A stretch of 63,756 nt of DNA, the filler included, from Stramenopiles sp. TOSAG23-2 (taxonomy: Eukaryota), in assembly GCA_900128395.1 (NCBI GenBank). It is 6 parts of 6 records of this genome, joined end to end, with 100 filler letters (N's around TTAATTAATTAA, not from the genome) between each part and the next. Parts side by side here need not be neighbours in the genome. Positions count along the whole stretch, not along the records: positions 28,563 to 56,950 come from LT649402.1; 5 more parts are not named here. One strand, written 5' to 3'. Positions 1 through 62,155 of this stretch are shown here, piece after piece. How positions within the stretch are numbered: the first letter of the stretch is position 1; every line of letters begins with the position of its first letter. The position numbers were made by a program, and so were the translations under genes. The notes below the pieces were generated by a model. The model was not told where the DNA came from and ran no database searches. It worked only from the letters and a program-made list of their open reading frames with translations.

Positions 1-747
1 CTGGCCAGGTTTTTGGCGTATTATTGGCTGGTAGTGTCACCTCTTTTCTTTTTGAAAAAAGGTCAAAATCCAACAATATAATAATCAATACCAATGCTAT
101 GTCCATGGATCATATTATCATCCCCCTCTCGCATGCACGGCTGCCATCTGCAATGATGTGTTATTGTAGCTATAGCGGTGTTTCCAGAGTGAGGTGCCAG
201 ATTGCATTATTAATATTTTATTACTGAATTCTTTCCTGGGAAACATGTGGAGAAACATCACAACAAGTGAAACACACAATAATAGCAGGCTAGTACTATT
301 GTAGATAAAATCAATGTCTTATTTTTATTTATATAAATCGAGTAATGTTCATTAAGTATTATAATATAACTATAATAGTCTACTACTTGATTCATTAAAC
401 GTCCATCTAGACTTCTAAAATATATTGAATAGCAGTCCAATATAGCAGTCCAATAATAATAATAATAAAATGAATAATAAATGCAAATAATATTGATATT
501 GAAAACAATTCGATGAACTAAGATGTGTGACATTACAGTGACAGTGTGAATACCGTGTCTATCAAGTGAACGATCAAAAATATCATCATCAATCGTCTCC
601 TATTATTATTATTAACCTATTTCGTATTAATAATTGTGTAGATAGATATCGATCAATCAAACGATACACACACACACACATATATACGAAAGCGAGAAAA
701 AAAAAAATAAATTTAAAATCAAAATAACAATAACATAATACATAATA

Positions 748-3700
748 ATGGACCCATCTACTTTTTTACAATTATTACATAGAACAGATGATGAAGCTGC
801 TATCTATCATTTTCAAATATTGGAACAATTGAATGAAGTATTATTACGTGCTATGGATTTTGGTATTGTAGAGAAATATCCACCATCTGAATTTTTACCT
901 GCATTATGTAAAATTTTAAAACGACCCGTACATATCCTTGCAGAGACACCTGTGTTATGTTGTCGTGCTATTAAACAATTTTTAAAAATTGACCAAAGTA
1001 GACAATGTTTACGTATATTATTATCACAAAATATCATTGGTGCATATTTAGATGGTTTAAAAGTCAACCGCAACAACCCAGACCAAACCGCTAAAGATTT
1101 AGCAGAGGAATGCATCAAAACGCTGGAAATATTTTCACGAACGTTTCCAAGTGCCTTGTATAAAGAAAAAGCATTGCAACCAATTTTACAATTTAAAGAA
1201 ATTTGTCCACCACATTTTCCAGCAGATGTGAAATTATCCGCTTTAAGTATTATATCAAGTATATGTGGTTGTATGAATCCATTTGGCGATTCCAATGAAT
1301 TTTTAAGTTTATTAAAATCATTTGTACATGAATTGAAAAGCACGAAAATGAATGGTGGCAAAGGTGTAAATAAAATACGTGAAAGTTGCTTAACTAGTTT
1401 ATCCCTTTTATGCGATCGTGGTTGTTTTTCCATACCACAATATGATAGTCAAATTTTTGTAACAATGAAAACGGAATTGTTTCCAAATTTATTACCAATG
1501 TTAATACGTAGTGAAGATGTTCAATTACGTTCACAAGTTGCTATTTTATTATCGAAAGTTTTATCAGCATCTGAACATGTATTACGTAGTATGATACAAT
1601 CAAATATTATTGAAATTGTTAATCAATCATTAGGTGGACATGTATTGATTACTACTACTACTACTAATAATAATAATAATAATAATAATTATGATATTGG
1701 TAATAATAATAATAATAATGAAAACATGAAAGGGAATAATAACAATGAGAATAATAACATTGATAGTAATAATACTATCAACGCAACGATGACGACAACA
1801 ACTGCAAAAACAACTGCTGCTGCTTCTATTTCATTAGAATCATTAGCATTATGTGAAACATTAATGAATTTATTATTTACTGGACATCGTATGGCTGCAT
1901 TACGTTCCTCTCCATTACAAACTTTATTACGACGAAATGCGGGGATACACGTTGGTGATGCAATTGTTGGTTTACATCCAGAACAAGGACAATGGTATTC
2001 CGGCCATGTATTGGCAGATAATGGTGATGGCACATTTGCTGTTCAATATGATGATGGTGAATTTGAAGCAAAATGTAACTCTGTGAAACATATTGGCCAA
2101 GCATCGGATAGTACACAAGTACGGCTTTTACGTGCAATACAAGAAAATAATGTAACATTAGTTGATCAATGTTTATCTAAGAAAGGAAGACCGATTGATC
2201 TATTGCAATGTGTGGATGGGCAAGGGACACCCACCGTCGTATGGGCATTGGCATTGGGTGGTTCTGAAATTATTGAACGATTACTCGTACATGCAAAAAA
2301 ATTGCCAAAAATATCACGAGAACGATTATTGGGTATAGCATTGCGGACAGCAGCTGCATTTGGGCGTCCATGGGCAATTCAAAGGCTACTGGAGGAAGGA
2401 GCAAAAGCAGAGGAACGTTCTGGAACAGGTACATCAACATATGACGCTGTTTTAATTGGAAAATTTTGGGCGGAACGATGCAAAGTATTGATCAAACGAG
2501 GTGGAAAACACGATCAAGCATTGAATTTATTGAAAGAATCGTTTAAACCAAATTTGGAAAAAGAAAAACAAGCATTTATAAACATTTGCGAGAAACAATT
2601 ACAGATTTATAATAATCAAGATCATCAAAAGAAAAAAATGAATGATGATATGACTATAAAAGATGTTGAACTAGGCGATGATATTGTTGTTGCTGCTGCA
2701 ACTACTACTACTACTAACGAAGAAAAAAAGAATAATGTTATATCACTAGATATGCAGAAAAAAACTAATGATGATAATGATGTAAACAAAAACAATGATA
2801 AACAAACAAATAATGAAAATAAAAAATCTGTTGAAAAAACATTGGAATTCTTACATACAAGTATAGTAAAATGCCAAAGTGCATTTGTTGGATCCATCCT
2901 ACAAACGTTGTGCAATTTATCAAATGATCCATCATGTGAAGCGTCATTACGTTTACATACAGTACGTTTAATATTAAGCTTATGCCAATATGCACCAAAG
3001 GAAATGTTGCGGAAATCAATCATAGAAGATAATAAAGAACAATCACCATTTTTAAATGAAGGTGAAGTAAGAAGAAGAGATAGTAGAAACAATATTAGTA
3101 GCAGAAATAGTAATAATAGCAGCAGCACGGAAGAAAAAAATCATGGTAACGATAATAATAACACCAATAATAGCACCGACAACGCCGTGAGTAAGAGCGA
3201 CGATGATGCAGATTTAGACATGGATGAATTTGCAATGTTTCAACCACGGCCAAAAATTACAATAAGCGCAATATTAGCAACGTTATTAGAACAATTGCTT
3301 GTTCCGCAAGGTGATCAAGATTTACTTGGTATGGCATTGCGTTTAACATGGTCGTTGTTGAAAAAAGATTTAGATTATTTTCACCCCGAATTTTTACGCC
3401 GAGGGATAATTGAAAAAGTTGAAGTCATTTATGATCAAGAAGCTCATTCAAAAAATTTTCTTGGTGCATGTTGCAGCGCAATTTTAGAGCTAGAGATTGA
3501 AGAAGAAGAATTGATGGCAACTAAAAATGAGAATGATCTCTTTCTCAATAAGTTAAATGCTATTCCACTATCCCCTTTATCCCCATCAAAGCGAAAAGGA
3601 ATTCTGGATGATTCACCTGGAACATCATCATCTTTGTCTGGAAGAAAAGGTAGTATTCGGGATGGTTCACCATCGCTCAAACGGTTGTTAAGATCTGGTA

Positions 3701-6700
3701 GTGCGTATGATGCACTTGTTAATGCCGTTGGTGATTTGCAAGCTATCTGCATGGCGAAATCGTATGAATCATTAACCGTAGTAGAAAGCCAAGAATTTGA
3801 TCATGCAATTGCAGTGTTAACAAATACGTTCACAAACAATGATTTTACCGCATATGAGTTTGAACAAAGTAATTTAGAAGAATTATTAACATTTGTATTT
3901 AATGATGATAATGAAATTGGTAAAACATATGTCCCACATTTTAATAGCGCATTTGGATTGTCAGATATATCATTGATTTCACCAGATGGAAAAGAAGATG
4001 ATGAAGATGACGATGCACTTGCCAGAAGACGACGTAGTTCATCAAAAGGAGGTGGGTCGTTTAACCATCAAGATGAATCGTTTTTCAAATTGATTACAGC
4101 TTTGCAAACATCATTAGCGAAAGAGGTAGAATTTTTATGTTCAAACGCTACCAGTCCAGAAAAAAAAGATGGCAACAATCAAAATGGCACCAGTAGTGCA
4201 AAAAAACAAAATGATTATAATTCTAATTGGACAAAACCCATCAGAGTGTGTTTAAAACGATATGATAATGATGATACAACAAAGGCCAACATCGTAGAAG
4301 TGGAAGGAGATAGAGATTTAACGGTAAATGATAGCAACAATATTGGTAAAATTGAAGATTTAGATGGAAAAGTATTTCCAGTTGAATCTTTAGTCCCTAT
4401 TGCAGATATCGAATCTGAAATATTAAAGCAAGCATCGTTCAATTCTCCAAAGTATAGAAGATGGTGCATGTGGTTAGTCGGTCGTCGCGTGGAAGTGTTG
4501 AAATCAAATGGATCCTGGGCAGTTGGAGAGGTATTGTCATGGAATAAACGGAAATCCTCTCATAAAATTGTTTATAATGATGGAGAAACACAAGATCATG
4601 TTATGTCAAAAATGTATTATCGTGTTATAAAGATGGATGAAAATGCAAATTCATTAGGTATTGAGCCTTTGATAATTGGATTAACGCGCGATGGCAAAAC
4701 AGAGGAGGTAAAAGAATGCCTTGGAGTAGGCAATAATAGTAACACTATTCCAGTAAATGCAAGTAATGAGGAAGGAAAAACAGATGTAGAAACAGAGGAG
4801 ATTCCATGGGATGAAATTTACGATGTCAACATACAAAATTCATTTGGAAATACAGCTTTACATATTGCAGCTTCATGGGCACGGACAGATATTGCAACCA
4901 TGCTTTTAGAAAAAGGCGGCGATTTAAATGCAAGAAATAGCGTCGGGGGCACACCATTGCATTGGGCTGCACGTTACGGAAAAGTTATTTCGATAGAATT
5001 ATTAGCAAAAGCCGGTGCGGATATGAGTGCAGTGGATAACGATGGCAAAACACCCGCAGATGTGGCAGAAAGCTTACGGGTTTCGGAAGCTGTTATAGCT
5101 AATGGTGGGAAAATTACCGAAAAGTTCTACAATGTTGGAGATTTAGTGCGTATTCGAGACAATGTGTGGATACATGCTGATGTTCATAATAATGATAATA
5201 CAGATGAGGGTAGTAAAAGTTTTCCAACGTATGGGTGGCCAAAAGGGACTAGCGAGAAAGATATTGCTTTGTTGAAAAGTGCAAGTGACAGTGGCTTGAA
5301 AGAAAATGCGACTGCTCCAAAATATATTGTAGGTACTATCGTGGAAATTGTACCGTCAACAGATTCGAAGGATGGCAAGCTTGTTATCGACTTTGCTGAA
5401 GATGAAAGTATGGAAATGACTGGGTGGAATGCAGCACCTTGGGAAGTAATATCAGTTGTTAAGCCAAGCTTCTTAATTGGCAGCGATAAATTAGCAGATG
5501 CCGCATCATGGAAGGCACCATTGTCAATTATTGATGATGCAGCTGAGAAAAGTGGTTATGTAGAATCTATTTCTTGCATTTTCTCACGCTCTCCAACGTA
5601 CTCCAAATTGAAAGTAAATGTCTTCGAGCGCATTCGTGATCGGCAATTTGCGTTGATCTCTACCGTTTCCATACCAATTGATACAACTGTTCTTACTCCT
5701 CAACTGCAAATGATTAAATTACCCAAATCAGAACGTCCAAAAATTGGAAAAGGTCAATACTTAGGATTGTCTTGCGTCCGAGGCCATCATTTAAATATTC
5801 ATAGTCGTTCCACGAAAGGATACAAAACAAATATATTTTATGGTGATCCCCCGACGCGCCGTGGGCAAATTTCAACTTTTAAATCATACCTTGGAAGCGA
5901 CAAGAGAGGGACGACTGCGGCAGGATGGTTTGCAACGATTGTAGTGGATCAAGATGACGATGTGGATGTTCAGGACAAGGGAGCAGTAGGAGAAACAGTC
6001 TATGCAAATAATCTTAAAAAAACAGCATCTACGTCATCAAAGGAAAAGTTTCGACAGGGAGATCGAGTAATGGCCATGTGGAAAGAAGGCCGACAGGCAA
6101 AATATACAGATTTTTATCCTAGCACGATTATGAGTGTAAATAAGGATGGTACATATGTAGTGAAATATGACGACGGTTATTCCGACAAAGCTGTTAAGCC
6201 TAAATTTATACATGCAGTTGAAAAGGCAGATGTAGAGAAAAACGTTGTTGCGAAATTTAAAGCCGCAAGAGCGGAGAAGTTACGCCGGAATCAACGCAAA
6301 TCATCAACAAATGACGGCAGCTCGCAGTCATCATCACGTCGTTCATCTCGATCGGAATCGGCTGATATGTTAGCTAAAATGAAAGAACGTGTAAAATCGA
6401 TGAGAAGTCGTTTGGAAAATTCTGGATTGAGGCCACCGCCTGCACCTGGTAGTGGATGGGAAGAAATGATGCGCGGCGAGTCGGAAAGGCCCACGGGTAC
6501 GCCTGGGAGTTCTACGCCATTTTCATCAATACGCGAATTAAGACAAAAACAGACACGGCCAAAGAAGCCACAAAAGCCCCCAGAGCCGCCAGCTGCTATG
6601 GTAGCACAATTAACAGATATGGGATTTCCAGAAGATCAAGTCAAGCGTGCCTTGCTGGCAGCAGGAAATGATCCAAATCGTGCTGTTGAATATTGCATGA

Positions 6701-9700
6701 ATCCAGATGCAATGCCATCATCCGCATTTAGTGAAATGGCACAACAAGTATTTGGTGGAGGAAGTGATAACAATAATGAAGGGACACCAAGTGGCATGTT
6801 GCAAAGTCGTTCAAGCAATAATCCAACTTCACAAACAACGTCGGCATCATCTTTTCAATCGGAACTTGGTCAGATGTTTGGTGGGTTGATGAGTGAAATG
6901 GGAAATGCACTCGGTCGAAGCCGTGGAAACTCGGAAAATGAGACAGATGAGGATAAAGCTGGCCCACCTCCAACAGATGAATTTACAGATTCATTGAAAG
7001 TCGGAATGTTTGTTGATGCAAAGGATTCATATGGAAAATGGTATGAAGCTGCTGTGAAGGAAGTGATACCGGAAAGTCCAAATGGGAAACGTGTTTTCAT
7101 TCATTTTTTTGGTTGGAGTGATAGATTTAATGAATGGATTGATGTTAATTCTGGGCGTGTTCAGCCATCATATTCGATGATCGAGCCATGGAGGGAAAGC
7201 TTGTTATCACCGGGAACCATGGTTGAATGCAAAATTGCATCAGGTGGGGAAAATAGTGGCAGCCGGGAGTGGAATATTGCCAAGGTAGTCGATGTGAATG
7301 AAGATAACGAGGAGATTAAAATCCAATCATTAATGTCCAACGAAACCAATGATCCAGTTTTGCGAGCTGAAGAATGGATATCGATCGAATCAGAACGTTT
7401 ATGCAAACAAGGAACACATATTGTTGCCATTTCTACAGATCCAGATAAATTACTGAATGATCCAAGAGCTTTGGCACAACTATTGCAAAATCCATCGTCT
7501 TTACGCGGCGCATTGTCTGCCATGGCTCGTGAAACGAGTGGAGATAGCGAACATGCAGGGGCATTGTCTGCATTGCAGAAACAATTAGGATTTCTAGCAA
7601 AGAAGATAATTCGAAGTGGGCCACAGCGCGAACCAGAAACAGTTGTCGATCCTACGCCATTGTATTGGTGCTGTTTTAATTGTACATTTGAAAGAAATCT
7701 ACCATCTGAAAGATATTGTCGATTATGTGGAATGAGAGGTATAGTTCCAAGACGTGAAATGGTTGAAGATTTGCAAGTTGTAGTGCAAAACAAAGATACT
7801 GGAATGTGGGAAGAAGGTAGAGTATCCAGTAGCAATGAAGATGGATCCATTACGATTACGTTTGTTAACGGCATTAATGAATGCGTAGTAAAAGATCCAG
7901 TAGGAATTACTAGTAAGATGGGCGAAGATGACACTGTAGTACAAGTTAGCAGTTTAGCAGCTCGTCAAGAGGATGAAGAGTTTGAGCAAGATAAGGCAGA
8001 GCAACGGGAAGAACGGCGCCAGCATTCTGAAGGTGAAGTCATAAGATTGAAAGGTACAAATATTTTACAAGATGCACGTGCAGAGAAAATTTTATATAGC
8101 AGGCATAGTGACACAGAATCATTTCAACGCGCGAAGGCATCGGAGTTATTTATTGCTTTGCCCAAAGAGTACAAAGTTGGAAATACTGTTGGAAATCGTG
8201 GTACATTGATTCAACCTTTTAAAATACAAACTTTTATGTCAAACGAACATTTGTATAATGCTCACTTTGGATCATCTTTATCGAAACGGGATCACTATCT
8301 TCGCATGAAATCAACAGTAGATTCAAACATACACACGTACAATCCGGTGTATTTAATCGGCCAGCGTGTTGAGTTTTATTGGGTACTAGAGTCACAATGG
8401 TTTGAAGGGACGATATCTAATTACGATCCCATCTCCAATATGCATACGGTCTTGTATGATGATGGGGAAGTGAAACAATATAATTTGAAAAAGAAGACGT
8501 GGCGGGTATTGCGAACATATGCATTAGGTGATATTGTCGAGTGTTGGAAATCAAGCAAATTGATGTTTGTTCCTGGAAAAATTGTGAAAGTTGATAAAAA
8601 AAATGGTTATTACAAAGTAGAATTATTTGAGAAATTGAACGTGAAGCAGAGAAAAAGTCCAAAAGTAAGTGGTAAAAAAGGCAAGAAAAAGGATATAAAC
8701 AACAGCAAAAGTACTACAAATACAACACGTAAGAATGGCGTATCGCTACGCCCTGGCGCATTTTACTTGGGTACATTTGCAAAAACGGATGTTGTCAATG
8801 TTTTAAGTAATGGTGGTTTAAATAACTCTGCGAATTATGAAATTGTTGGTATCAATAATGCTCCAAGCAACGACATGGAGGTGCAAGATGACATCGTTAA
8901 CGACGACAATAATGCAGTTACAACTACTGCAATGAATAGATTAGTTTCGTTGGCGCAGTTTAACAGTGAAGACCGAGCCAATCAACAAATCTTATCACCA
9001 GTAGTACACCCATTGCATTTACGATTCAATTTATTTGTTGAAAATGAAGACAATACCAAATATATTTTTAATCCAATGTATGAACATGTTTTGCAAACTT
9101 TATTTGCAAAGATTGTCTCCTTTATAGATAGCAATGATGGTTTGGCAATACCTAATGAGCAATTTCAAGCATTGGCAAAGGTATCCGTTGTATTCAGACG
9201 AGCATTTGAAGCATCTAGTGCCACAATGAATAACACAAGTAAAGCAAAAGGAGGCGATAAAAATAGCAACAAAACTGGTGAGATATTCAGTTCCTCCGAT
9301 GTTGTTATTGACGAGGATGGTGATGAGAATTCTTCTACTCGTAACCTTTTAGAGTACGAATATATTGATTTTGGCATATTTAAAAACATATTAAACTTAT
9401 TGCGCGTTGAAATTTTATCAAGAGCTCTTTGGACAGATTTGACATGCATTTGCAATTATAAATATGATTTAGAAGAATTTGCGGAGGAGACAGAAGAAGC
9501 TGTTGAAGAGTCGAAAGAGAAAAATATTTTCGATGTGAATGGGGTAACAAAATTGCAATCAGACCAAACTTTATCTAGTGTTGTCGCGGAATGGTGGGAA
9601 ACATTTGGAGAGCCTAAAGGTGAAACATATGAAGCTGATAAAGTTTACACGATATTTTATAAACTGGGGTTTGTACCAAATAAATTTACTACAGGCAAAA

Positions 9701-12063
9701 ATAATGTTGTCGTTACAAATATTTTAGCTGATACTAGTGGAAATACCAATTCAATTATAAATAGCAAAATAACAGAAGGAAAAAAAACAAATGTTGTGAA
9801 TTATAATAACGATATCAATGTAAATGCTAAGCTAGTTTTATTGCGTAAATTTAAAGAAGTGGCATCCGGCAAATCGTTTGGAATCAATTGGCAAAATAAA
9901 AGTTTAACACGACGATTTTTAATGAGTTTGAATGACAAGTTTTGCTTAGCATCTGATTCTTTGCCAATAACATTACGAACTTTGTTAAATGTGGGATATG
10001 AAAAAGGTGCATTTTTATTCCCATATGACCTACGCCGACATTATTTCTTAGCGACTGCGTTTGGTGTCCGAAGAGCTTTGTATTACATACAACGCGAGGA
10101 TAATGCAAATGTGGGATTAGGTGGTGGTTCGAGACCGACAAGCCGCGGTTCACCATCGCCAATTCGAAGTTCCGCAAATCGCACTGAAGGGCGTTTTCGC
10201 TTGTCTAAGTTGAAGAAAGAACTAGTAATGATGTCTCGTGAGCATATTGTTAGTCATGCTACTTTGTTTTTTGGACAACATGCAAATAGGAAAGCGGCTT
10301 TAGAAGTTCGATTTTTAAGTGAAAAAGGAACAGGTTCAGGGGTTACACGTGAATTTTACAGTGTCTTGGCGTCTGCATTGCAATCTCGTGAAGGAAGTAA
10401 ATGCTCTGTACATACCGATAAACATTCACTGCTATCGTTAGTACCATGTGAATTAACAGTCAGCTCTGGCTACATGGATGTCACACATTCTGGTATAATT
10501 TCAACACAATTTTCTGGATTTCCAACAATGATTGCTAATAAAAATATTGCATTAAGCGATGGGAAATGGTATTATGAAGTTGAAATTACGAAGAAAGGGT
10601 TGGCACAAATAGGATTTGGCAGCTCCGTATATAATGGTGGTGACTCTGAGAAAGGAGATGGAGTCGGTGATGATGATGACAGCTGGTCGTATGATGGTGC
10701 ACGTGTATTGAAATGGCATGGTGGTTCAAATGATGGTTTCGGTCGAGGATGGAAAGTCGGAGATGTAGTTGGCTGTTGCGTAGATATGGATTTACGGGAG
10801 ATTAAATATAGTTTAAATGGATCCTTCACCGCTCCGATGGGAGTTGCATTTATCAATATTAGCGAAGACGTTAAATATGTTTACCCAGCACTGACGATTA
10901 ACAGTTCCTTTGGTGGCAAAGTATGTTTTGGCGGTGGAATGCATGGTACAACAAAATACGACCCACCAGAAGGTTATAAATGTATTTTTGAAGCATATGA
11001 TCTCCCTGTATTAAATGAAAGTTCCGATGCAAGTAAAGATTTAATACAGAAAAGTGTTAGTAATAACAATTCAGAATTTGATATGTGGGTGGATGATTTA
11101 AAACAAGAAGGCCAGTACGTAATGAACCCGATTGGTTTGTTTCCAACACCACTGCCAAATGGCCATGAAGCGACTAGAATTATTTGCAAGCGTTTCCAAT
11201 TGATTGGTCGCTTAGTTGGTCGAGCATTGATGGACGAACAAATTTTACCACTTCCTTTATCGTATGATTTCTTAAGTTTAGTTTTAGGGGAAACTATACC
11301 AATAGAACGATTACCTGGAATATTCGTTGATTCTCCGACACGAGGTAAATTAATACAAGATTTACTTAATAGTACCCGGGAAGATGAAAGCGAAACAATT
11401 TCTGTTAAGGATAACAATAGTAAGAAATTGCAAAGGCAGCTAAGTGCTGAACTGTACATGGAAGATATGGTTACTGGCGTACCATTGATCGAAAATGGTA
11501 ATGATATTTTAGTAGATGAAACAAACTACATGCAATACGTCCAATTAATGCATAAGTTTTTATGTACAGATGGAACGAAAAAGCAAGTAGAGGCATTTAA
11601 GCAAGGTTTAAACGATGTTGGCGAAAATGTCTTGAAGAAGTTAAGAATGTTTAGTCCAGCTGAGATTCGACAATTAATATGTGGAAATGAAACTATTGAT
11701 TGGACGGAAGATGTCATATTTGAATGTATCAATGCAGAGCATGGGTATCAAAAAGATAGCAAAGAAGTTCATGATTTAGCAACTGTTTTATGCGAGTTTG
11801 ATCAAACAGAGCGGAAATCGTTTTTAACATTTTTAACTGGATGCCCACATTTACCTGCTGGTGGATTGAAAAACTTATCTCCTCAAATATGTGTATATAA
11901 GAAGAAGCCATCAGATGAAGTTGGCGATATCGATAATGCATTGACAAGTAGTAGAACGTGCAGGAATCAATTGCATTTACCACCATATAGCAATGTAAAT
12001 ATTATGAGGAAAAAATTGAAGCAAAGTATGGAGGAAAGTTTAGGTGCTATTGATTTGGCGTAG
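748..12063 (+). CDS. Giant HECT E3 ubiquitin ligase (TRIP12/UPL3/HECTD1-like): ARM-like N-terminus, several Tudor-like domains, ankyrin repeats, UBA, RanBP2-type Zn finger, SPRY, HECT
   Basis: 3771-aa intronless ORF. Ankyrin GNTALHIAA/GGTPLHWAA; UBA LTDMGFPEDQVKRAL...NRAVEY; ZnF WCCFNCTFERN...CRLCG; SPRY GKWYYEVEI...WKVGDVVGC; HECT EKGTGSGVTREFY, FLTFLTGCPHLP, catalytic SRTCRNQLHLPPY. Confidence 0.93.
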   Translation: MDPSTFLQLLHRTDDEAAIYHFQILEQLNEVLLRAMDFGIVEKYPPSEFLPALCKILKRPVHILAETPVLCCRAIKQFLKIDQSRQCLRILLSQNIIGAYLDGLKVNRNNPDQTAKDLAEECIKTLEIFSRTFPSALYKEKALQPILQFKEICPPHFPADVKLSALSIISSICGCMNPFGDSNEFLSLLKSFVHELKSTKMNGGKGVNKIRESCLTSLSLLCDRGCFSIPQYDSQIFVTMKTELFPNLLPMLIRSEDVQLRSQVAILLSKVLSASEHVLRSMIQSNIIEIVNQSLGGHVLITTTTTNNNNNNNNYDIGNNNNNNENMKGNNNNENNNIDSNNTINATMTTTTAKTTAAASISLESLALCETLMNLLFTGHRMAALRSSPLQTLLRRNAGIHVGDAIVGLHPEQGQWYSGHVLADNGDGTFAVQYDDGEFEAKCNSVKHIGQASDSTQVRLLRAIQENNVTLVDQCLSKKGRPIDLLQCVDGQGTPTVVWALALGGSEIIERLLVHAKKLPKISRERLLGIALRTAAAFGRPWAIQRLLEEGAKAEERSGTGTSTYDAVLIGKFWAERCKVLIKRGGKHDQALNLLKESFKPNLEKEKQAFINICEKQLQIYNNQDHQKKKMNDDMTIKDVELGDDIVVAAATTTTTNEEKKNNVISLDMQKKTNDDNDVNKNNDKQTNNENKKSVEKTLEFLHTSIVKCQSAFVGSILQTLCNLSNDPSCEASLRLHTVRLILSLCQYAPKEMLRKSIIEDNKEQSPFLNEGEVRRRDSRNNISSRNSNNSSSTEEKNHGNDNNNTNNSTDNAVSKSDDDADLDMDEFAMFQPRPKITISAILATLLEQLLVPQGDQDLLGMALRLTWSLLKKDLDYFHPEFLRRGIIEKVEVIYDQEAHSKNFLGACCSAILELEIEEEELMATKNENDLFLNKLNAIPLSPLSPSKRKGILDDSPGTSSSLSGRKGSIRDGSPSLKRLLRSGSAYDALVNAVGDLQAICMAKSYESLTVVESQEFDHAIAVLTNTFTNNDFTAYEFEQSNLEELLTFVFNDDNEIGKTYVPHFNSAFGLSDISLISPDGKEDDEDDDALARRRRSSSKGGGSFNHQDESFFKLITALQTSLAKEVEFLCSNATSPEKKDGNNQNGTSSAKKQNDYNSNWTKPIRVCLKRYDNDDTTKANIVEVEGDRDLTVNDSNNIGKIEDLDGKVFPVESLVPIADIESEILKQASFNSPKYRRWCMWLVGRRVEVLKSNGSWAVGEVLSWNKRKSSHKIVYNDGETQDHVMSKMYYRVIKMDENANSLGIEPLIIGLTRDGKTEEVKECLGVGNNSNTIPVNASNEEGKTDVETEEIPWDEIYDVNIQNSFGNTALHIAASWARTDIATMLLEKGGDLNARNSVGGTPLHWAARYGKVISIELLAKAGADMSAVDNDGKTPADVAESLRVSEAVIANGGKITEKFYNVGDLVRIRDNVWIHADVHNNDNTDEGSKSFPTYGWPKGTSEKDIALLKSASDSGLKENATAPKYIVGTIVEIVPSTDSKDGKLVIDFAEDESMEMTGWNAAPWEVISVVKPSFLIGSDKLADAASWKAPLSIIDDAAEKSGYVESISCIFSRSPTYSKLKVNVFERIRDRQFALISTVSIPIDTTVLTPQLQMIKLPKSERPKIGKGQYLGLSCVRGHHLNIHSRSTKGYKTNIFYGDPPTRRGQISTFKSYLGSDKRGTTAAGWFATIVVDQDDDVDVQDKGAVGETVYANNLKKTASTSSKEKFRQGDRVMAMWKEGRQAKYTDFYPSTIMSVNKDGTYVVKYDDGYSDKAVKPKFIHAVEKADVEKNVVAKFKAARAEKLRRNQRKSSTNDGSSQSSSRRSSRSESADMLAKMKERVKSMRSRLENSGLRPPPAPGSGWEEMMRGESERPTGTPGSSTPFSSIRELRQKQTRPKKPQKPPEPPAAMVAQLTDMGFPEDQVKRALLAAGNDPNRAVEYCMNPDAMPSSAFSEMAQQVFGGGSDNNNEGTPSGMLQSRSSNNPTSQTTSASSFQSELGQMFGGLMSEMGNALGRSRGNSENETDEDKAGPPPTDEFTDSLKVGMFVDAKDSYGKWYEAAVKEVIPESPNGKRVFIHFFGWSDRFNEWIDVNSGRVQPSYSMIEPWRESLLSPGTMVECKIASGGENSGSREWNIAKVVDVNEDNEEIKIQSLMSNETNDPVLRAEEWISIESERLCKQGTHIVAISTDPDKLLNDPRALAQLLQNPSSLRGALSAMARETSGDSEHAGALSALQKQLGFLAKKIIRSGPQREPETVVDPTPLYWCCFNCTFERNLPSERYCRLCGMRGIVPRREMVEDLQVVVQNKDTGMWEEGRVSSSNEDGSITITFVNGINECVVKDPVGITSKMGEDDTVVQVSSLAARQEDEEFEQDKAEQREERRQHSEGEVIRLKGTNILQDARAEKILYSRHSDTESFQRAKASELFIALPKEYKVGNTVGNRGTLIQPFKIQTFMSNEHLYNAHFGSSLSKRDHYLRMKSTVDSNIHTYNPVYLIGQRVEFYWVLESQWFEGTISNYDPISNMHTVLYDDGEVKQYNLKKKTWRVLRTYALGDIVECWKSSKLMFVPGKIVKVDKKNGYYKVELFEKLNVKQRKSPKVSGKKGKKKDINNSKSTTNTTRKNGVSLRPGAFYLGTFAKTDVVNVLSNGGLNNSANYEIVGINNAPSNDMEVQDDIVNDDNNAVTTTAMNRLVSLAQFNSEDRANQQILSPVVHPLHLRFNLFVENEDNTKYIFNPMYEHVLQTLFAKIVSFIDSNDGLAIPNEQFQALAKVSVVFRRAFEASSATMNNTSKAKGGDKNSNKTGEIFSSSDVVIDEDGDENSSTRNLLEYEYIDFGIFKNILNLLRVEILSRALWTDLTCICNYKYDLEEFAEETEEAVEESKEKNIFDVNGVTKLQSDQTLSSVVAEWWETFGEPKGETYEADKVYTIFYKLGFVPNKFTTGKNNVVVTNILADTSGNTNSIINSKITEGKKTNVVNYNNDINVNAKLVLLRKFKEVASGKSFGINWQNKSLTRRFLMSLNDKFCLASDSLPITLRTLLNVGYEKGAFLFPYDLRRHYFLATAFGVRRALYYIQREDNANVGLGGGSRPTSRGSPSPIRSSANRTEGRFRLSKLKKELVMMSREHIVSHATLFFGQHANRKAALEVRFLSEKGTGSGVTREFYSVLASALQSREGSKCSVHTDKHSLLSLVPCELTVSSGYMDVTHSGIISTQFSGFPTMIANKNIALSDGKWYYEVEITKKGLAQIGFGSSVYNGGDSEKGDGVGDDDDSWSYDGARVLKWHGGSNDGFGRGWKVGDVVGCCVDMDLREIKYSLNGSFTAPMGVAFINISEDVKYVYPALTINSSFGGKVCFGGGMHGTTKYDPPEGYKCIFEAYDLPVLNESSDASKDLIQKSVSNNNSEFDMWVDDLKQEGQYVMNPIGLFPTPLPNGHEATRIICKRFQLIGRLVGRALMDEQILPLPLSYDFLSLVLGETIPIERLPGIFVDSPTRGKLIQDLLNSTREDESETISVKDNNSKKLQRQLSAELYMEDMVTGVPLIENGNDILVDETNYMQYVQLMHKFLCTDGTKKQVEAFKQGLNDVGENVLKKLRMFSPAEIRQLICGNETIDWTEDVIFECINAEHGYQKDSKEVHDLATVLCEFDQTERKSFLTFLTGCPHLPAGGLKNLSPQICVYKKKPSDEVGDIDNALTSSRTCRNQLHLPPYSNVNIMRKKLKQSMEESLGAIDLA

Positions 12064-28462: not shown

Positions 28463-28562
28463 NNNNNNNNNNNNNNNNNNNNNNNNNNNNNNNNNNNNNN
28501 NNNNNNTTAATTAATTAANNNNNNNNNNNNNNNNNNNNNNNNNNNNNNNNNNNNNNNNNNNN
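28463..28562. other. Artificial contig linker N44-TTAATTAATTAA-N44 (also 56951-57050, 58653-58752, 60355-60454, 62056-62155)
   Basis: Identical 100-nt spacers with six-frame stops. The last four contigs are 1601-1602 bp, consistent with size-sorted concatenation. Confidence 0.97.
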
Positions 28563-41472: not shown

Positions 41473-42018
41473 ATGGTACCGAAGCCAGACCCATTGGTAG
41501 ATCGTATATGTGGTAAAACCGATATTGATACCCTCTTCCGTATTGCCGAGACTACCCATAAGGAAACTGCTCTTATGTTGAAGATCTTATTCTGGACAGG
41601 GATTCGAATAAGCGCATGCTGCAATATCTTAACTAAAAATATTACGATGGGTGAATCCATCTCCATTAAAGTATTATCCAAAGGGAATTGCTGGAGGACC
41701 GTCCATATCTGCAAAGTCAAAGCAGATACGATACGCGACCAGATCAATTCTATCCATACGAAATATTTATTTGCTGGAAGATACCGAAATACTCCTATTT
41801 CCCGATCTGCTGGTCACAGACGTATTAAAAAAATTGCAAATAAAGCAGAATTACACCATGTGACAGCTCACGTGTATCGACATTGTTTCGCGACATTCTC
41901 GTTAGCTGCGGGAGCTCCATTGACTGCCGTACGCGATGCAATGAATCACAAGAGCATCTCTACAACGTCTTTATATCTACATTCCACGGAAAAGGACGTA
42001 TCCACTTATATATGTTGA
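41473..42018 (+). CDS. Tyrosine recombinase/integrase catalytic domain (XerC/D-like); N-terminal domain apparently disrupted
   Basis: TGIRISA (R), SKGNCWR (K), TAHVYRHCFAT (HxxR), MNHKSISTTSLYLH (H, Y). The frame is open upstream to 41380. Confidence 0.9.
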   Translation: MVPKPDPLVDRICGKTDIDTLFRIAETTHKETALMLKILFWTGIRISACCNILTKNITMGESISIKVLSKGNCWRTVHICKVKADTIRDQINSIHTKYLFAGRYRNTPISRSAGHRRIKKIANKAELHHVTAHVYRHCFATFSLAAGAPLTAVRDAMNHKSISTTSLYLHSTEKDVSTYIC

Positions 42019-42993: not shown

Positions 42994-45900
42994 ATGAGGA
43001 CATATACGAATCTATTATCCATTCTCATTTTCATATCATTCGCCAATTTGAATGTAGCCATGGATGGAATATGTGATGTACGTATCAATATGTTGCAATC
43101 ATTAGCAAAAGATGGATTTTTACGAAATCATCTTTATTTATCACAATGGTTTCATAGGAAATATCCAAGATGCTCTCCTTCTAATTATGCAAATATTATA
43201 ATAGGCGAAATAGAAAACGTAAAAGAGAATAATGGGGTATTGCAGAATCATTTGATGAAGGATGGCAATTTTGATAGAAACAAAGAAATTAGCGTTAAAA
43301 CAAATGATGATGAGGTATACCATCAACGTTACGATGGCGATAAAGTAAATAAACATCTTTTTACGTTGAGTAGAAAAGATAATAATGTAAATGTTGATTC
43401 AAATAAAAAGGCTGTTATATTGAAAAAGATCATTAATAATGGAATGAACGAGAAAGATGACGGTAGGTATAATATTGAAAAAAGACGACTGAATATTGGT
43501 AAATCATTGATAGGTGAATGGAATGAACAATCATCTGGAACGTATATATTATCAAAGGATGTGAATACATCAAAATCGATTATGGTTTTAAATGCATTAA
43601 CTATTACAGGTATTGTTGGTATGGATGGTAAACGACCTGCAATTGATGGTGGTGGGACACCAGGGTGTACGGATTATAATGGTTGTCCTGGTCATACAGT
43701 ATTTCAAGTTAGTGATTATATTGTTTATTTAACGTTGACAAATGTGACGATTAGAAATGGATTTGTATGTATATATATATATATATATTTCACTTTCAAA
43801 GTTATTATTAATAATAATGGTTAACTTTCTACATGTATTAAATTCAAATCAAAAACTAACTGTAATTTATATATATTTGATGATGATCTACATAATATAG
43901 TCCAATAATGTAAGTGTTGTTTTGCTATGGTTATGAGACATTGATTTTTTATTTTCTTCTTCTTTCTTGTATTTGATACTAACTGTAATTGATTTGTACT
44001 TTTGATAATGTTCTATGTGATGAAAACGATATAGATTGTAAGTAGTTTTTGTTTGCATCGAGAATAATACATTGATTGTATTTATCTTCTTTTTTCTTCT
44101 TTTATACATACAAAATAATGAATGTACTAACTGTATTTGATTTGCATTTTTGATATTGGTCTACATAATGAACGCGAACGATGTATGATTAATGTAACTC
44201 TGTGCATGATATTATGAAATACGTATTTATAGGGTGGTGGATTGGACATTGATTTAAACGCTGTAGTCGTATTAACAAGTTGCACTTTGACAGGTAACAC
44301 TGCGGTAAGTATGTTGCATTGATCATAATACATTGATTGTATTTATGTATTTTCTTTTTTATGTTGAAGTATATGAAGTAATAAATTTACTAATATTGTA
44401 ATTGATTTGTACTTTTGATAATGTTCTATGTGATGAAAACGATATAGACTGTCAGTAGTTTTTGTTTGTATCGAGAATAATACATTGATTGTATTTATCT
44501 TCTTTTTTCTTCTTTTATACATACAAAATAATGAATGTACTAACTGTATTTGATTTATATGTTTGGTGATGGTGTATGTAATGAAAACAATATAGCAATA
44601 TGTAAGTATTTGTTTGCTTTAATAATAATACATCAATTGTATTTATGATTTACATATATCAAGTACTAACCATCTAACTTTTTATATAATTATTTAATTA
44701 TGTAATTTATAGGGAGGAGGAATGCACATTGATAAAGGCGATGTAACAATTATAGATAGCCACTTTGGTTCTAATACTTGTCGGAAGGTAGTTGAAGGTT
44801 GTGGCAGTGATATTTACACCGTATCACCAACTATCATCATCAATACCACCTTTAGCATTGCAAATTCAAATTCAATACAAGGAAACCCACATCAATGTAC
44901 ACCAGGTATTTGCCAACAAATCTTTCAATCATATCCAAATGATGGAATTGATTGCAAAAACAATCCATATAAACAAGGGATGAAATGTTTCCCATGCCAT
45001 CCAGGCAAATATTTAACTGAAAATGCTCCATATCCATCATGTTTACCATGTTTAGCTGGGAAAGCAACGAATAAATATGGTAGTGCTTCATGTGATACAT
45101 GTTCACCAGGAAAAATTCAACCTATAAATACAATTGCAAGTTCGTGCAAATTATGTGGAGCTGGAACATATTCAAACAATAGCATTGCATGTATTGACAT
45201 CCCGCCTGGTATGTATCCGTCCAATTGTCACGATACAAGTAACAAAAAAGGTTGTAGCGTAATCAAACCATGTCTACGTGGATTTTATTGCCCATTGAAG
45301 ACTACTATACCAATCCAATGTTTGCAAGGATATTATTCCAATATTACTGGTGCACCAATATGTTTAAAATGCAATAGTGGTCGAGCAAGTAATATACTAC
45401 AAGCGACTGAATGTACAGAATGTAAAATGGGACAATTTGCTACCAACGAAGGTATGAAACATTGCGAATCGTGCACAGATGGTCATACTACATATAATAA
45501 AGGTAGTACTACTTGCAGTGAGTGTACTATTGGTAAAGCTGGTACAAATGGTATTTGTAGTCCATGTATAACTGGAAAGTATCAAGATGAAGCTGGTACT
45601 ATAAATTGTAAAGAATGTCCTTCAGGCAAGCAATCGGCTAAAACTACTTGTACGTCATGCAATGCAGGTAAATATCTTGATGGTAGGAATTGTAAATCGT
45701 GTAGTAGTGGTAAATTTTCAATTGCAGGTTCAGCAAAATGCTTAGATTGCCCAAAGGGAAAGTGGGCAAAAAGTAAGATAGCATCTCCCAGTTGCATCGA
45801 TTGCCCAGCTGGTTTCTACGGTTTAGTAAAAGGACAAACAAATCAAAGTGATGCATGCAAAGTATGTGGTAAAGGTAAATTTAGCTCTGCTATTGGTGCT

Positions 45901-48426
45901 GATTCAGATAAATTATGCAACGATTGTCCATTAGGTACTGCAAGTAATGTAGAAGGTGCGAATACCAGTGATGTTTGTAAACTGTGTAAAAAGGGTAAAG
46001 TAGCAAATGTAACTGGATCAGAGCAATGCTATTATTGCAAAATGGGTTATATCCCAAGTAAAGGAGGCACCCAATGCCAAGCATGTAGTACAGGGACCCA
46101 TGAAGTTAACGATAAATGTGAACCTTGTAGCAAAGGTAAAAGTCAAAGCAACATAGGTAAAAACATATGTAACATTTGTTTACCAGGACAATATTCCAAT
46201 TTTAAAGGCTTACCAACATGTTTACAATGCTCACCTGGACAAGCAATTGATAGTAAAAATAATACACAGTGTTCGTTATGTGAAAAAGGCAAATTCACCA
46301 ATAGTGCTGGCAGTTTAAAGTGTACCACATGCGAAGCTGGTATGACTACTTTTGTTGAAGGCAGTGTCCAATGTTCCGATTGTCCAAAGGGTAAAGTAGG
46401 ACGGAATGGTAATTGTGATGTATGTCCATTCGGAAAAGTCGCACGAACAGACGGCACTAAAGTTTGTCAACCATGCAATGTAGGATTTCAACCTGGTAAA
46501 TATAATATTTCATGTGTTAAAATGGATGTAAATGGATCCCCGCCAACAAGTCTTTCAATTAAAATGGGACCAAATCGCACTACTTTATTTGTGAAATGGA
46601 AATTACCAAGCGATGTTATTACTCCAGATGATAGAGTTGTTATTGTTCCTGTAGATCGAGTTACAAATGATGATGTGTATCAATCTGTATGGTATGGACC
46701 AGCAGTTGCGTTAAATGCGATGTTACTAAATGTAGATGTATATAAAAAAGTATATACGTTGAAAATTTCCATTTTGCATAAAAAAGACGGATCAACAAGC
46801 CCAAACACGACTTATAGCGAAACGTGGCAAACAACAAGTGATTGCAGCACAGATGGTACATATTTAAATGCTACTAGTCATGATTTAGCTGATTGGAAAT
46901 GCAATAAATGTCCTCGTGGTGCATCTTGTCAAGGTCCAATAACATGGAATGATGTAAAAGCTCGATTTGGTAATTGGCATGTACCAAATACATATAATTT
47001 TAATAAATGTATACGTCCACAAAGCTGTTTAGGTGCAGCAAATAATTTATATTATGAACGTTTTCCAACATTAGCAAAGCATGATCATAATGTTTCGTGT
47101 GCCGCACCAGGTTTTGTACAAGGAAGCCGCCTTTGCGCAACATGTGCTAGACCAGAATTTGCACGTGGTACCAGTAAAGGCAGTTGTGTGAAATGTCATA
47201 AGACATGGAATATAATTATTTTGATTGGTTCGATTGTATTTGGTTTGGTTGGATTTACTTTATTGTTACGTATGACATTATTCCAACGAAAAGACATTAA
47301 ATTGTCAGATGGTATCAAGAAAATTGCCATCAATTATTTACAATTTGCATCATTAGCATTAAATTTAGATATGCCATGGACAGATGTATTGCGTGAATTG
47401 TTTAAATGGCAAAGCTATGGCGTCGGTGTATCCAATGCATTGATATCGTTGGATTGTGTATTAGCAGATACACATACAACATGGCAAGTATTTCAATGGA
47501 AGTTTTACGGGACATTACTGATGCCTATTGGTTTTATACCAATTGCGTATATGATTGTGAAAGGTGTGTTGCGTGGTGGTCGAAAGGAATTTATAGCATC
47601 GTTGATTTTATTTTGGTATTTGATGTATCCACAGATTGTAAAAATACTTACCAAATTGGTATCATGCACAGATGTAAACGGTACAAAATATCTCATTGTA
47701 GATCCAGAAGTAGAATGTTTCGCCTACAATGCATTTGTATGGTGCGGGATTCTGTTTGGTTGTGTAGTTTACGTAATCGGTATGCCATTGATAGGTTTTT
47801 CTATTGTGAAACATTTAGATCGCAATGCACCTGATAATCGATTAAGATTTGGTATTTTGTACGATGGGTATGACAGTACGCATTACTGGTGGTGGGAAAT
47901 AGTCATTCAAGTGCGAAAGTTAGGCGTGATATTGATAAGTGCGTTGGTTGAAAGTCGTGTACAACAAATACTATTAGTGTTGTTTGTAATCGTTATATCA
48001 TTGTTCTTTACAGCATGGTTACGTCCATTTTATGATGATCGTTTAGTGAGAATGGAAATGCTGTCGTTGATCGTTTGTTTTTTAACCTTCTTCTTCGGTT
48101 CAATGCTTTTGAGTGATGAAAAATGTGTTGAAAATGAAGAATTTCTATGTGTTTTAGCGCAATGGCTGGTGATTTTCATAAATGCGGCTTGTGTGTTGTT
48201 TCTCGGTATAAATTTCAGCCAAAATTGGTTTGTAGAAAAACGAGATATGTTTGGTAAATTGGTTCGCAAATGCAATTGCTGTTGTAAAGATGAGGAGGGG
48301 AGGCTACAGCGTCGTGAATCTTATTTTGAAATGCAACAAAGCTTCGATGAAGGCGATGGAGGTGATGTTGGTTTATTTGGTGATGATGCATTGGAGCAAC
48401 GCGATGGGGAATACCATCAATTGTGA
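42994..48426 (+). CDS. ~1525-aa surface receptor/adhesin: signal peptide, POMP-like beta-helix GGG repeats, many CxxC (GCC2/ephrin-receptor-like) repeats, FN3-like domain, 7TM. Exons 42994-43764, 43901-43909, 44035-44037, 44233-44304, 44448-44450, 44596-44601, 44713-48426
   Basis: Every predicted intron is GT..TAG and phase 0, with a CTAAC/CTAAT branch-like motif. The spliced product reads IRNGF-SNN-I-GGGLDI...GNTA-T-QY-GGGMHI. The 7TM region has INYLQF, SLDC, GILYDGY, WWEIV..RKL. Confidence 0.8.
43984..44556. repeat. ~160-bp intronic direct repeat (43984-44143 and 44397-44556), each copy spanning a 3-nt microexon
   Basis: Near-identical sequence around gatatag|ATT|gtaagtag and gatatag|ACT|gtcagtag. 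Confidence 0.9.
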
Positions 48427-48618
48427 ACTTGGTCTAGCACGGTTGTATTGGATACCCCCCCTCCCCATTAGGACTTCCTTTTGTCTTGTAATAGATAATA
48501 TTTAATCAATATTCTCAAAAAAGAGAATATTCTTAACACATTATAGTATATTATTTATTTTAAAAGTATTTGTTGGTCAAGCAAGTATACCCCCACCATA
48601 ATGTCATTCTGTTTGTGT

Positions 48619-56929: not shown

Positions 56930-57662
56930 TTTTTATATACCTCTACGGTANNNNNNNNNNNNNNNNNNNNNNNNNNNNNNNNNNNNNNNNNNNNTTAATT
57001 AATTAANNNNNNNNNNNNNNNNNNNNNNNNNNNNNNNNNNNNNNNNNNNNACATTGAAACAGAAAAACAAGCAAAACATATATTCGTAATCAAATCAATG
57101 ATTTTTACAAAAATAAAAATCATTCAAAAAATAATAAACCATCAGCTGATGTTTAGATATATTGATATATGTATTCGTATCTAAATACTATCCTATCATA
57201 TTACCGGCGGTGCTCCATACTCGATTATGAGAATATCAACACACTAGTGTGAGATAGATTATTTTTCAGTTATTTTATTCTTTTGAAGAGAGTAGGAATT
57301 ATCATGAGTAAATTAAAAATAAATTAATGCGTCGTAAATTAAATATATTATAATATTATATCATCTTTTTATATAATAATTAACCATCAATATATCATAT
57401 TTAAATAAATAATATCATATATTTAAAAAAATATAAATAAAAAATGATTTATATAATTTTAGAGATAGTATAAATTACGAATTAATATTACTTTTTTCAT
57501 TCACGCTACACCCTCTTGTCAAAAATTTTTGTTTACTCCGAAAAATACGGATGACGTAATGCTTTAGAAGCCGTAATACGTTTTGATGGTGAAAANNNNN
57601 NNNATTACGAATTAATATTACTTTTTTCATTCACGCTACACCCTCTTGTCAAAAATTTTTGT

Positions 57663-58559: not shown

Positions 58560-58752
58560 GGTATTTATAGTTTATTATGGTTCTGTTATTAATATATATA
58601 TATTATATAATGTTACTACTATAATGTTTGTATATATATTATATAATGTTACNNNNNNNNNNNNNNNNNNNNNNNNNNNNNNNNNNNNNNNNNNNNTTAA
58701 TTAATTAANNNNNNNNNNNNNNNNNNNNNNNNNNNNNNNNNNNNNNNNNNNN

Positions 58753-60288: not shown

Positions 60289-60861
60289 GATAGTGATTAT
60301 TGTACGGTTGTATATAAATTTACACACACACACACGTAAAAAATAGTTTTTTCANNNNNNNNNNNNNNNNNNNNNNNNNNNNNNNNNNNNNNNNNNNNTT
60401 AATTAATTAANNNNNNNNNNNNNNNNNNNNNNNNNNNNNNNNNNNNNNNNNNNNCATAATTAAAGATGTCTAATATATATATATATATATACAATTGTAC
60501 AAATAAAAACGTATCTATGCAATGATGCAATAATAATAATAATAATTGGTAGGAGCTACTAATCATACAAAAAAGACGATGCGGTAATATGTTTTGTTCT
60601 AGCGGTATCTATCTATTTCTCTTAATCTCACACAACATCTTCTGTATACTTTTACAACAACAATATATAAACCACAGGTAAAACAACACAACACACCCCA
60701 CTATAGGTCATTTTTACAGTTAAAAATAAAGTATATACTAATGATAATATATATATATATTATATGATGAATAAAAAACATTCCCACTTTAATACAACAT
60801 TGCATTTGTTGAATTGTACCTGGTATTTATATAAATATATTCAATTACAGATAATAATAAA

Positions 60862-61638: not shown

Positions 61639-62155
61639 TATCATTTTTATCATACTAAATATTTGCACATTTGATAATATTGTGAAAAAAAAACATTTTG
61701 GGGCGGCTGGGAGAGAGATGGGGAGAGAAGAAGCGAAGCGGTATAAGCTGGTAAGAGGAAAGTGCATGACGAAGAAGAATAAAAATAGTCATATCCTTGT
61801 ATCGAAAAAGTATTTTTACGTATATATATATATATACTTGTGCTTGTAGAGTATTAGTTTGCAGAGGTGCATTAGAGCTTTACTATAGTAGGATAACATA
61901 TTATTCTTGCGATTGAGTATTGAGCATTATTACTTTAACACGTAGAAGTGTAAAAATATTATAACTTAGATTTTAACCATCATTTTATATTAAAAAAGGA
62001 AAAAAGGATACTCTCTACAATTGATTACGTAAATTTTTCACAATTTGTGCATGTANNNNNNNNNNNNNNNNNNNNNNNNNNNNNNNNNNNNNNNNNNNNT
62101 TAATTAATTAANNNNNNNNNNNNNNNNNNNNNNNNNNNNNNNNNNNNNNNNNNNN

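Follow-up and report, generated by a model that had tools for sequence, protein, structure and literature searches.

Putative single-codon microexons between tandem copies of a short intron in a beta-helix membrane-protein gene of Stramenopiles sp. TOSAG23-2

Introduction

Isolated exons of 3 nt, the micro-exon genes (MEGs) of schistosomes, intron gain by tandem duplication and the intron families called introners are all known already, and it is with these systems that we compare a gene of the protist Stramenopiles sp. TOSAG23-2. The gene lies on a 63,756-nt stretch of DNA from the assembly GCA_900128395.1, which we analysed as a whole and call the window. Between its two long exons, six intron-like units alternate with a 72-nt exon and with four spacers of only one to three codons (Table 1). 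On the evidence of the sequence, these spacers are probably real single-codon microexons that arose through local amplification of a module made of an intron and a codon.

The MEGs of Schistosoma contain runs of consecutive symmetric microexons, with exons of 3-81 bp (10.1101/2023.06.21.545858). They encode small secreted flatworm proteins from 10-20 microexons, mostly of about 15 bp, which are separated by introns of 0.1-5 kb and for which alternative splicing is documented. The window gene resembles them in its consecutive putative microexons, all in phase 0 and of 3n length, which lie between conventional exons and would encode variable parts of an exposed or secreted product. Unlike the MEGs, it has mostly one-codon putative exons and short introns copied from each other, and its product is a protist membrane protein of more than 1500 amino acids. 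Isolated 3-nt exons are spliced in animals, as in Drosophila homothorax micro-Ex8, MAP4K5 and RPS24 (3/18/22-bp microexons) (PMC7392893, PMC8632122, PMC12207440). These cases show that splicing of a 3-nt exon, and of a few consecutive microexons, is possible; however, the exons concerned are single and conserved, belong to genomes with long introns and exon definition, and do not form arrays between paralogous introns.

Tandem genomic duplication is known to yield extra functional introns (PMC4974935). In the classical form of this process the duplicated segment is an exonic AGGT stretch, and what was exon becomes the new intron, whereas the repeat unit described here is a whole pre-existing intron together with about one codon, amplified several times. 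Introners, like our units, resemble one another within a family and bring their own splice signals with them, but they are dispersed as transposon copies throughout the genome while the copies reported here are local and tandem (PMC9860276); neither "tandem" nor "microexon" occurs in the main text of that paper. The SNORD115/116 host genes have dozens of consecutive homologous introns, as here (PMC11608373). There, a small nucleolar RNA (snoRNA) sits in each intron and the host exons are non-coding; a search of our units for snoRNAs or other RNAs matched no Rfam family (best score 20.1 bits, gathering score 60), which sets them apart from tandem snoRNA-host introns. The GGG...N-x-A rung motif of chlamydial Pmp and other parallel beta-helix proteins is common to the window gene, although the latter falls below the Chlam_PMP threshold and joins its rungs to Ephrin_rec_like repeats and a multi-pass membrane domain. 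The flagelliform silk gene of spiders is built of repeated modules of intron and exon, in which the introns resemble each other more closely than the exons do; it undergoes concerted evolution, and its exons are large. Arrays of one-codon exons between paralogous introns were not found in the literature by a full-text search, which had subscription journals and supplements outside its reach.

Results

The preliminary description of this locus had read the interval between the two long exons as six introns separated by tiny exons, and the positions and letters it gave for the spacers, the 72-nt exon and the flanking splice motifs turned out to be exact. At the DNA level all junctions are indeed in phase 0, with 9, 3, (72), 3 and 6 nt between them, and the CTAAC or CTAAT reported upstream of the acceptors is present in every unit, 35-102 nt before the acceptor. 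That description had not seen that all six introns derive by copying from a single unit of about 111-195 nt (alignment A1). Tandem Repeats Finder gives a period of 148 nt, and self-comparison of the array gives offsets of 123, 148, 152, 261, 271, 300, 413, 480 and 561 nt that run through the junctions. Positions 43984-44172 and 44397-44585 share 94% identity over 189 nt without a gap; since the ATT and ACT spacers both lie within this duplication, they represent one copied event and not two independent ones. Similarly, the 3' end of unit i1 matches 44126-44185 in unit i3, together with the 9-nt spacer and the GTA that follows it (73% over 60 nt). The spacer pairs there with about 44174-44182, where the acceptor is gone, and the tail of i3 probably contains a decayed junction. 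The start of the 72-nt exon is 78% alike to that of the next exon (repeat D5).

Table 1. Parts of the window gene, with positions along the window
Feature	Position	Strand	Length	Description
Exon 1	42994-43764	+	257 codons	Open reading frame from the ATG at 42994; 24 homologues
Intron unit i1	43765-43900	+	136 nt	GTATGT, (TA)n, CTAAC 41 nt from TATAG
Spacer (putative microexon)	43901-43909	+	9 nt	tatag/TCCAATAAT/gtaagt; S-N-N
Intron unit i2	43910-44034	+	125 nt	GTAAGT...CTAAC...TATAG; 3' part duplicated in i4
Spacer (putative single-codon microexon)	44035-44037	+	3 nt	tatag/ATT/gtaagt; I; inside repeat D1
Intron unit i3	44038-44232	+	195 nt	First ~135 nt 94-96% identical to i5
72-nt exon	44233-44304	+	72 nt	GGGLDIDLNAVVVLTSCTLTGNTA; one beta-helix rung
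Intron unit i4	44305-44447	+	143 nt	GTAAGT...CTAAT...TATAG
Spacer (putative single-codon microexon)	44448-44450	+	3 nt	tatag/ACT/gtcagt; T; duplicate of the ATT junction
Intron unit i5	44451-44595	+	145 nt	Weaker donor GTCAGT, CTAAC, TATAG
Spacer (putative microexon)	44596-44601	+	6 nt	tatag/CAATAT/gtaagt; Q-Y
Intron unit i6	44602-44712	+	111 nt	GTAAGT, two CTAAC, TTATAG
Last exon	44713-48426	+	1237 codons + stop	Open reading frame directly after the acceptor TAG

The copies have diverged to 69-94% identity, and the mean column identity of the six window units is 55% (a pairwise table with cheap gaps, which overstates the identity of unlike units, was used for near-identical pairs only, and BLAST values otherwise). 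The conserved core of the unit matches four times in the window, all four inside the array and with none expected, while BLAST found no copy of the unit outside the array in the 63.7 kb, only TA-rich or short matches; within the window we are thus dealing with a local tandem array rather than a dispersed element. No terminal inverted repeats or target-site duplications were seen at the unit ends, where the spacers flanking a unit differ, and the two inverted repeats of the array are weak and lie elsewhere than at unit ends. The first ~50 nt of i1 are weakly like an intron of a neighbouring gene, but the match consists of low-complexity (TA)n and a short motif, and we do not claim a dispersed intron family on its account. 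The periodicity of ~123-152 nt that runs through the junctions, and the copies that start with GTAAGT and end with TATAG, are what intron gain by tandem duplication leaves behind. The repeat structure shows that a local amplification took in an ancestral phase-0 intron (after ...NG(Y/F)), the intron after the rung exon and, with them, about one codon. The junction pattern itself, TNYAG followed by 1-12 nt and GT(A/C)AGT, was counted on both strands of the window: four of its five occurrences are in the array, which is far above chance. Looser matches of this pattern within exons (43755-43764, 44294-44304 and several in the related locus L003) and weak GTTTGT donors are excluded from the spacer count.

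Taken singly, the units also have the look of this genome's ordinary introns. Two introns of a neighbouring gene on the minus strand (14396-14280 and 13866-13735), of 117 and 132 nt, provide a baseline: both have GTAAGT, CTAAC and then 65-70 AG-free nt before atag, a layout that the array units share, whereas the two halves of the array, taken as single introns, would measure 468 and 408 nt. In the window, six of six units end with TATAG, contain CTAAY and start with GT(A/C/T)(A/T)GT. The dinucleotide AG occurs 13 times in the bodies of 14 units, where 75 would be expected, against 89 occurrences of GA, and all 13 remaining AGs are at unit position 73 or before. When one representative was kept for each group of near-identical units, the nine non-redundant bodies (1204 nt) contained eight AGs against 42.8 expected, a depletion that none of 2000 shuffles reached, and 52 GAs. 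Neither the antisense strand of the units (58 against 57) nor AT-rich intergenic controls (151 against 163, and 167 against 179) are depleted in AG. Sense-specific exclusion of AG together with kept splice signals is what selection on each unit's own acceptor predicts, and would not be expected of interior copies within one long intron. Recursive splicing was rejected as an account of the junctions: the AG and the GT are 3-9 nt apart, and the end of exon 1 joined to the start of the spacer recreates no GT. As for the two baseline introns themselves, their long span from branch site to acceptor is unusual for ordinary introns, and their donors follow a T at position -1 (...TT/GTAAGT), an atypical context on the exon side.

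We then consider the spacers as codons. Over four loci, all 11 of the spacers flanked by units measure 3, 6 or 9 nt, and all end in T. Because copies inherit the length of their spacer we count about five independent spacer classes, so that the probability of all being multiples of three without any constraint of frame is roughly (1/3)^5 = 0.004. Within loci, the near-identical pairs of intron copies are 93-98% alike, and in locus L004 the 20 nt upstream of the junctions are identical in three of three cases. In the junction alignments no other column varies as much as position 1 of the spacer (0.83 in L001 and L002 taken together, 1.0 in L004); position 2 (0.67 in both) is tied with several flank columns, and position 3 is an invariant T inside each of the three junction groups. 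This variation could reflect selection for different residues, or intron copies that spread between pre-existing codons. T makes up 5 of the 28 nucleotides at positions 1 and 2 of the 14 spacer codons (18%), compared with 26% at the same positions in the codons of this gene (P=0.24) and 44.5% in the introns (P=0.003); a coding-like composition is favoured over an intron-like one by a log-likelihood ratio of 3.1 nats. The residues encoded, S, N, N, I, T, Q, Y, A, N, S, D, R, D and Y, are mostly polar.

The place of these residues in the protein was also correctly given in the preliminary description: the N-x-A/NG that closes one rung lies directly before them, and the GGG of the next rung directly after. 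Four relatives encode their rungs continuously (L003, whose protein is P0049; P0032, 1066 amino acids; P0050, 1073 amino acids; and P0051, a EukProt gene model of 1046 amino acids), and in them we parsed by eye, as loops, the stretches from N-x-A/NG-x to the next (G/A)GG. Their lengths are 3, 3, 7, 4, 4 and 2 residues in L003, 8-9, 2 and 4 in P0032, 11, 7, 2, 3, 12, 9 and 3 in P0050, and 6, 5 and 7 in P0051, so that 19 of 19 loops have 2-12 residues. With its spacers the window gene would have loops of four (SNN-I) and three (T-QY) residues; without them it would have none at either place. The structure prediction that the preliminary description had called for was made with AlphaFold on residues 71-362 of P0032, from a 14-row family alignment. 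The model has a mean predicted local distance difference test score (pLDDT) of 76.8 and a predicted template modelling score (pTM) of 0.72, with pLDDT values of 84-96 over most rung blocks and 68 for the longest loop. DSSP assigns repeated strand triplets to it, and the loop residues equivalent to the spacers are coil between the last strand of a rung and the first of the next. Every top match in Foldseek is a right-handed parallel beta-helix. Only one of them reaches E <= 0.001, 9cdu_A, Rhombotarget A (E 8e-4, TMq 0.50), the others being pectin methylesterases, chondroitinase B and phage tailspikes. The rung domain is therefore modelled as what is probably a right-handed parallel beta-helix, with the spacer residues predicted in the turns between rungs. 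The repeats had earlier been called POMP/Pmp-like, a name that stands for the fold and for nothing closer, because Chlam_PMP (PF02415) stays below its cut-off on the continuous rungs of L003 (12.5 bits against 20.6, E 0.19). The same family has no match on the window exons or on P0032, and the Atlas neighbours that carry PF02415 score 0.79-0.80, below 0.9, which makes them leads only.

Exon 1 has 24 homologues among metagenome open reading frames (ORFs) in a search for proteins of similar length. In 18 of 19 that were aligned, the ...NG(Y/W/F/V) end is followed, at once or two residues later, by V-C or V-S; as these are the translations of GTATGT and GTAAGT, a multigene family has the phase-0 intron position in common. 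A similar search with the start of the last exon gave four matches, all beginning at an internal Met ("MYI"). Exon 1 matched two longer proteins in a separate search, and a library of representatives returned 24 matches with one long relative, P0032. The matches of similar length (24 and four) are all ORF fragments that end at these introns or start after them, while three longer relatives run through. At least four related metagenome loci (L001, L002, L003 and L004) were fetched, and no further ones were found in genome contigs and viral contigs.

Three of these four loci (L001, L002 and L004) have an array architecture like that of the window. In L001, exon 1 is followed by four units separated by GCT, AAT and TCT, and the sequence continues; in L002, two units are separated by GAT and the sequence likewise continues. 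The order in L004 is unit, CGT, unit, GAT, short unit, GTAACACTGCT, unit, TAT, unit. L003 has a single intron of 85 nt, after which six rungs are encoded in one uninterrupted exon. Unit i1 of the window corresponds to the first intron of L001 and L003. The first introns of L001 and L002 are 98% identical, yet their first spacers differ, GCT against GAT (L001 1030-1204 and L002 1186-1304), and the second unit of L002 is nearer to the third unit of L001 (97%) than to the second (93%), which hints at a change in unit copy number between close relatives. Family members also differ in how many GGG rungs follow exon 1, with two in the window gene, three in P0032 and P0051, six in L003 and seven in P0050; from this comparison whole rungs, and not loops alone, appear to be gained and lost in the family.

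Among 21 runs listed, the locus is present only in X1 and X2, two tiny runs that are probably the source itself. Contigs of the RNA or possibly-RNA runs X5, X15 and X19 and of the DNA run X3 were compared with the gene at 88% likeness. The RNA pieces recovered cover 43603-43669, where the sequence to either side is unlike the gene as in a paralogue, and 45257-48439; most are 88-95% alike and may derive from paralogues or relatives. In one contig of the DNA run X3, from another sample, position 44508 is followed by a return to 43864 ("goes back 645", side 33 nt), a joint that could represent another number or order of units in a related strain, or a repeat-induced mis-join.

From its ATG to its stop the window gene has an unbroken reading frame over all parts, and the product is predicted to be a large (more than 1500 amino acids), Cys-rich, multi-pass membrane protein of a marine, AT-rich protist. 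Exon 1 encodes a signal-peptide-like N-terminus, a family-specific N-domain that matches no Pfam family and the first beta-helix rungs, and it ends with ...TNVTIRNGF in phase 0 directly before GTATGT. The last exon encodes the final rung (GGGMHID...), a beta-helix cap, Ephrin_rec_like Cys repeats (PF07699, 94.8 bits against a cut-off of 23.1, in four stretches) and eight hydrophobic segments with a TRP-like match; its first 800 residues include 73 Cys, and NCD3G is below its cut-off there. The product had been described as a seven-transmembrane (7TM) receptor, a description that is not supported: a crude Kyte-Doolittle hydropathy scan counts eight hydrophobic segments, the sole Pfam match at them is TRP, practically at its cut-off (28.6 bits against 28.5), and no family of G protein-coupled receptors matches.

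The window is AT-rich (GC 27-42%) and contains uninterrupted ORFs of 3774, 1438 and 1237 codons, which suggests a very intron-poor genome in which six introns within 950 nt stand out. The first of these ORFs is open without interruption from 739 to 12063 on the plus strand. The second, on the minus strand (36285-40598), encodes SPRY, SAM, CHAT protease-like and NB-ARC/STAND NTPase domains, a death- or immunity-type combination that is unusual for a protist. About 1 kb upstream of the receptor-like gene, a plus-strand ORF of 234 codons (41314-42015) matches Phage_integrase, a tyrosine recombinase family (E 2.6e-26), and may be part of a Crypton- or DIRS-type eukaryotic mobile element. Pairs of 44-nt N runs 12 nt apart occur five times (28463-28562, 56951-57050, 58653-58752, 60355-60454 and 62056-62155); like one further N run of 8 nt (57596-57603), they resemble marks of masking or scaffolding and not biology.

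Discussion

We propose that a module made of an ordinary short intron and one to three codons was amplified in tandem within the part of the gene that encodes the beta-helix. Every unit of ~111-195 nt keeps its own donor, branch site and acceptor, and would be removed singly by intron-definition splicing, leaving the spacers in the mRNA as microexons. SNN-I would then form the turn ...NGF-loop-GGG..., and T-QY the turn ...NTA-loop-GGG.... That each unit copy is spliced separately, and each spacer adds one to three residues to the exposed turn between rungs, is in our judgement reasonably likely. Gain or loss of a unit, or decay of a junction as probably in i3, would shift the length of a loop codon by codon, and such stepwise change would both match and drive the variable loops of 2-12 residues in this family. 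Since the introns are tandem copies of each other, gain and loss of intron-and-codon modules in the DNA, rather than splicing, is indicated as the main source of loop diversity.

Several observations weigh against this proposal. Two spliceosomes cannot occupy introns 3 nt apart at once, so that splicing would have to be sequential, and among the introns themselves i5 carries the weaker donor noted in Table 1 while the third unit of L001 is without the CT(A/G)A(C/T) motif. As copies inherit their splice signals and their spacer length, the likeness of the introns, the exclusion of AG, the kept signals and the recurrence in other loci are only partly independent of one another. The constant T of the spacers may be a preference for T at donor position -1 rather than a synonymous site; both baseline introns likewise follow ...TT. 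No RNA contig of X5, X15 or X19 covers or bridges 43835-44769, which tells neither for nor against inclusion of the spacers, and no transcript-derived protein of a close orthologue is among the homology matches. Metagenome and single-cell assemblies can collapse repeats. In L004, finally, the 11-nt GTAACACTGCT is out of frame and differs at a single position from the final 11 nt of the window's 72-nt exon (10 of 11 alike); at 7026-7068 it is fused to a truncated unit, and after one more unit the contig runs on (7331 onward) into an unrelated ORF, so L004 is truncated, a pseudogene or a mis-join and is not relied on alone.

The simplest competing view is that of two long introns with an internal minisatellite, 43765-44232 and 44305-44712, each removed whole, the 3n lengths of their spacers being inherited from the founding duplication. 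Given tandem copying, the intact signals and equal spacer lengths could indeed be in part a recent legacy; the ATT and ACT junctions go back to a single event, an exon of 3 nt is difficult to define, and the RNA contigs include none that shows a spacer. We nevertheless regard this view as unlikely. It would leave the window gene with loops of zero residues, against the range seen in every loop of its continuous relatives, and with introns three to four times as long as the two verified baseline introns, and it does not explain why AG is excluded from the sense strand of every internal unit, why signals are kept where the bodies retain only 55% identity, or why the first spacer position is the most variable beside flanks that are alike, in a composition that is coding-like. 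The preliminary description had instead proposed combinatorial skipping, in which the microexons are real and yield up to 16-32 in-frame isoforms of the loops, and which is a sub-case of the separate splicing that we favour. All spacers are symmetric, in phase 0 and of 3n length, so that any skip remains in frame; the near-identical donors and acceptors could pair promiscuously, and skipping occurs in schistosome MEGs (10.1101/2023.06.21.545858). It is nonetheless doubtful here, as use of the nearest acceptor is favoured in each unit by the strong exclusion of AG and by a branch site close at hand, and the differences between paralogues in the DNA already account for loop diversity.

A mobile, introner-like intron whose copies propagated themselves and were inserted between differing codons that already existed would explain why copies within loci are nearly identical while the codons between them are unlike, and introners are documented in marine protists (PMC9860276). 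Such an origin is very unlikely, however, because all four core-motif matches of the window are inside the array, the unit ends have neither terminal inverted repeats nor target-site duplications that we could see, and the periodicity passes through the junctions as in a tandem duplication. The array might also be an artefact of assembly or a decaying pseudogene: the source data set is seemingly very small, L004 is truncated with an out-of-frame remnant, and the X3 contig joins 44508 back to 43864. Yet the copies are diverged and not identical, the layout is found in four independent assemblies and the window gene is open throughout, which makes this explanation extremely improbable. A bolder extension of separately spliced microexons, which we offer tentatively and think improbable, is that the array is a generator of loop length at codon resolution, in which any donor may be joined with any downstream acceptor to give stochastic in-frame turn variants in each cell, and unequal exchange between units adds or deletes single residues far faster than point mutation. 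If true, it would be a form of surface-protein diversification in a eukaryote built from the smallest possible exons.

If the spacers are kept in the mRNA as we propose, the window gene and its relatives would contain series of the smallest possible coding exons, of one codon, with full introns between them, recurring in a family of protist surface proteins. Gene predictors and ORF callers would drop such residues. For intron-definition splicing, too, the arrangement would be a test of how far it can go, since neighbouring spliceosomes have no room to assemble at a distance of 3 nt. For the family itself, the gain and loss of modules made of an intron and a codon would provide a simple route, in the DNA, to changing the length of exposed loops residue by residue.

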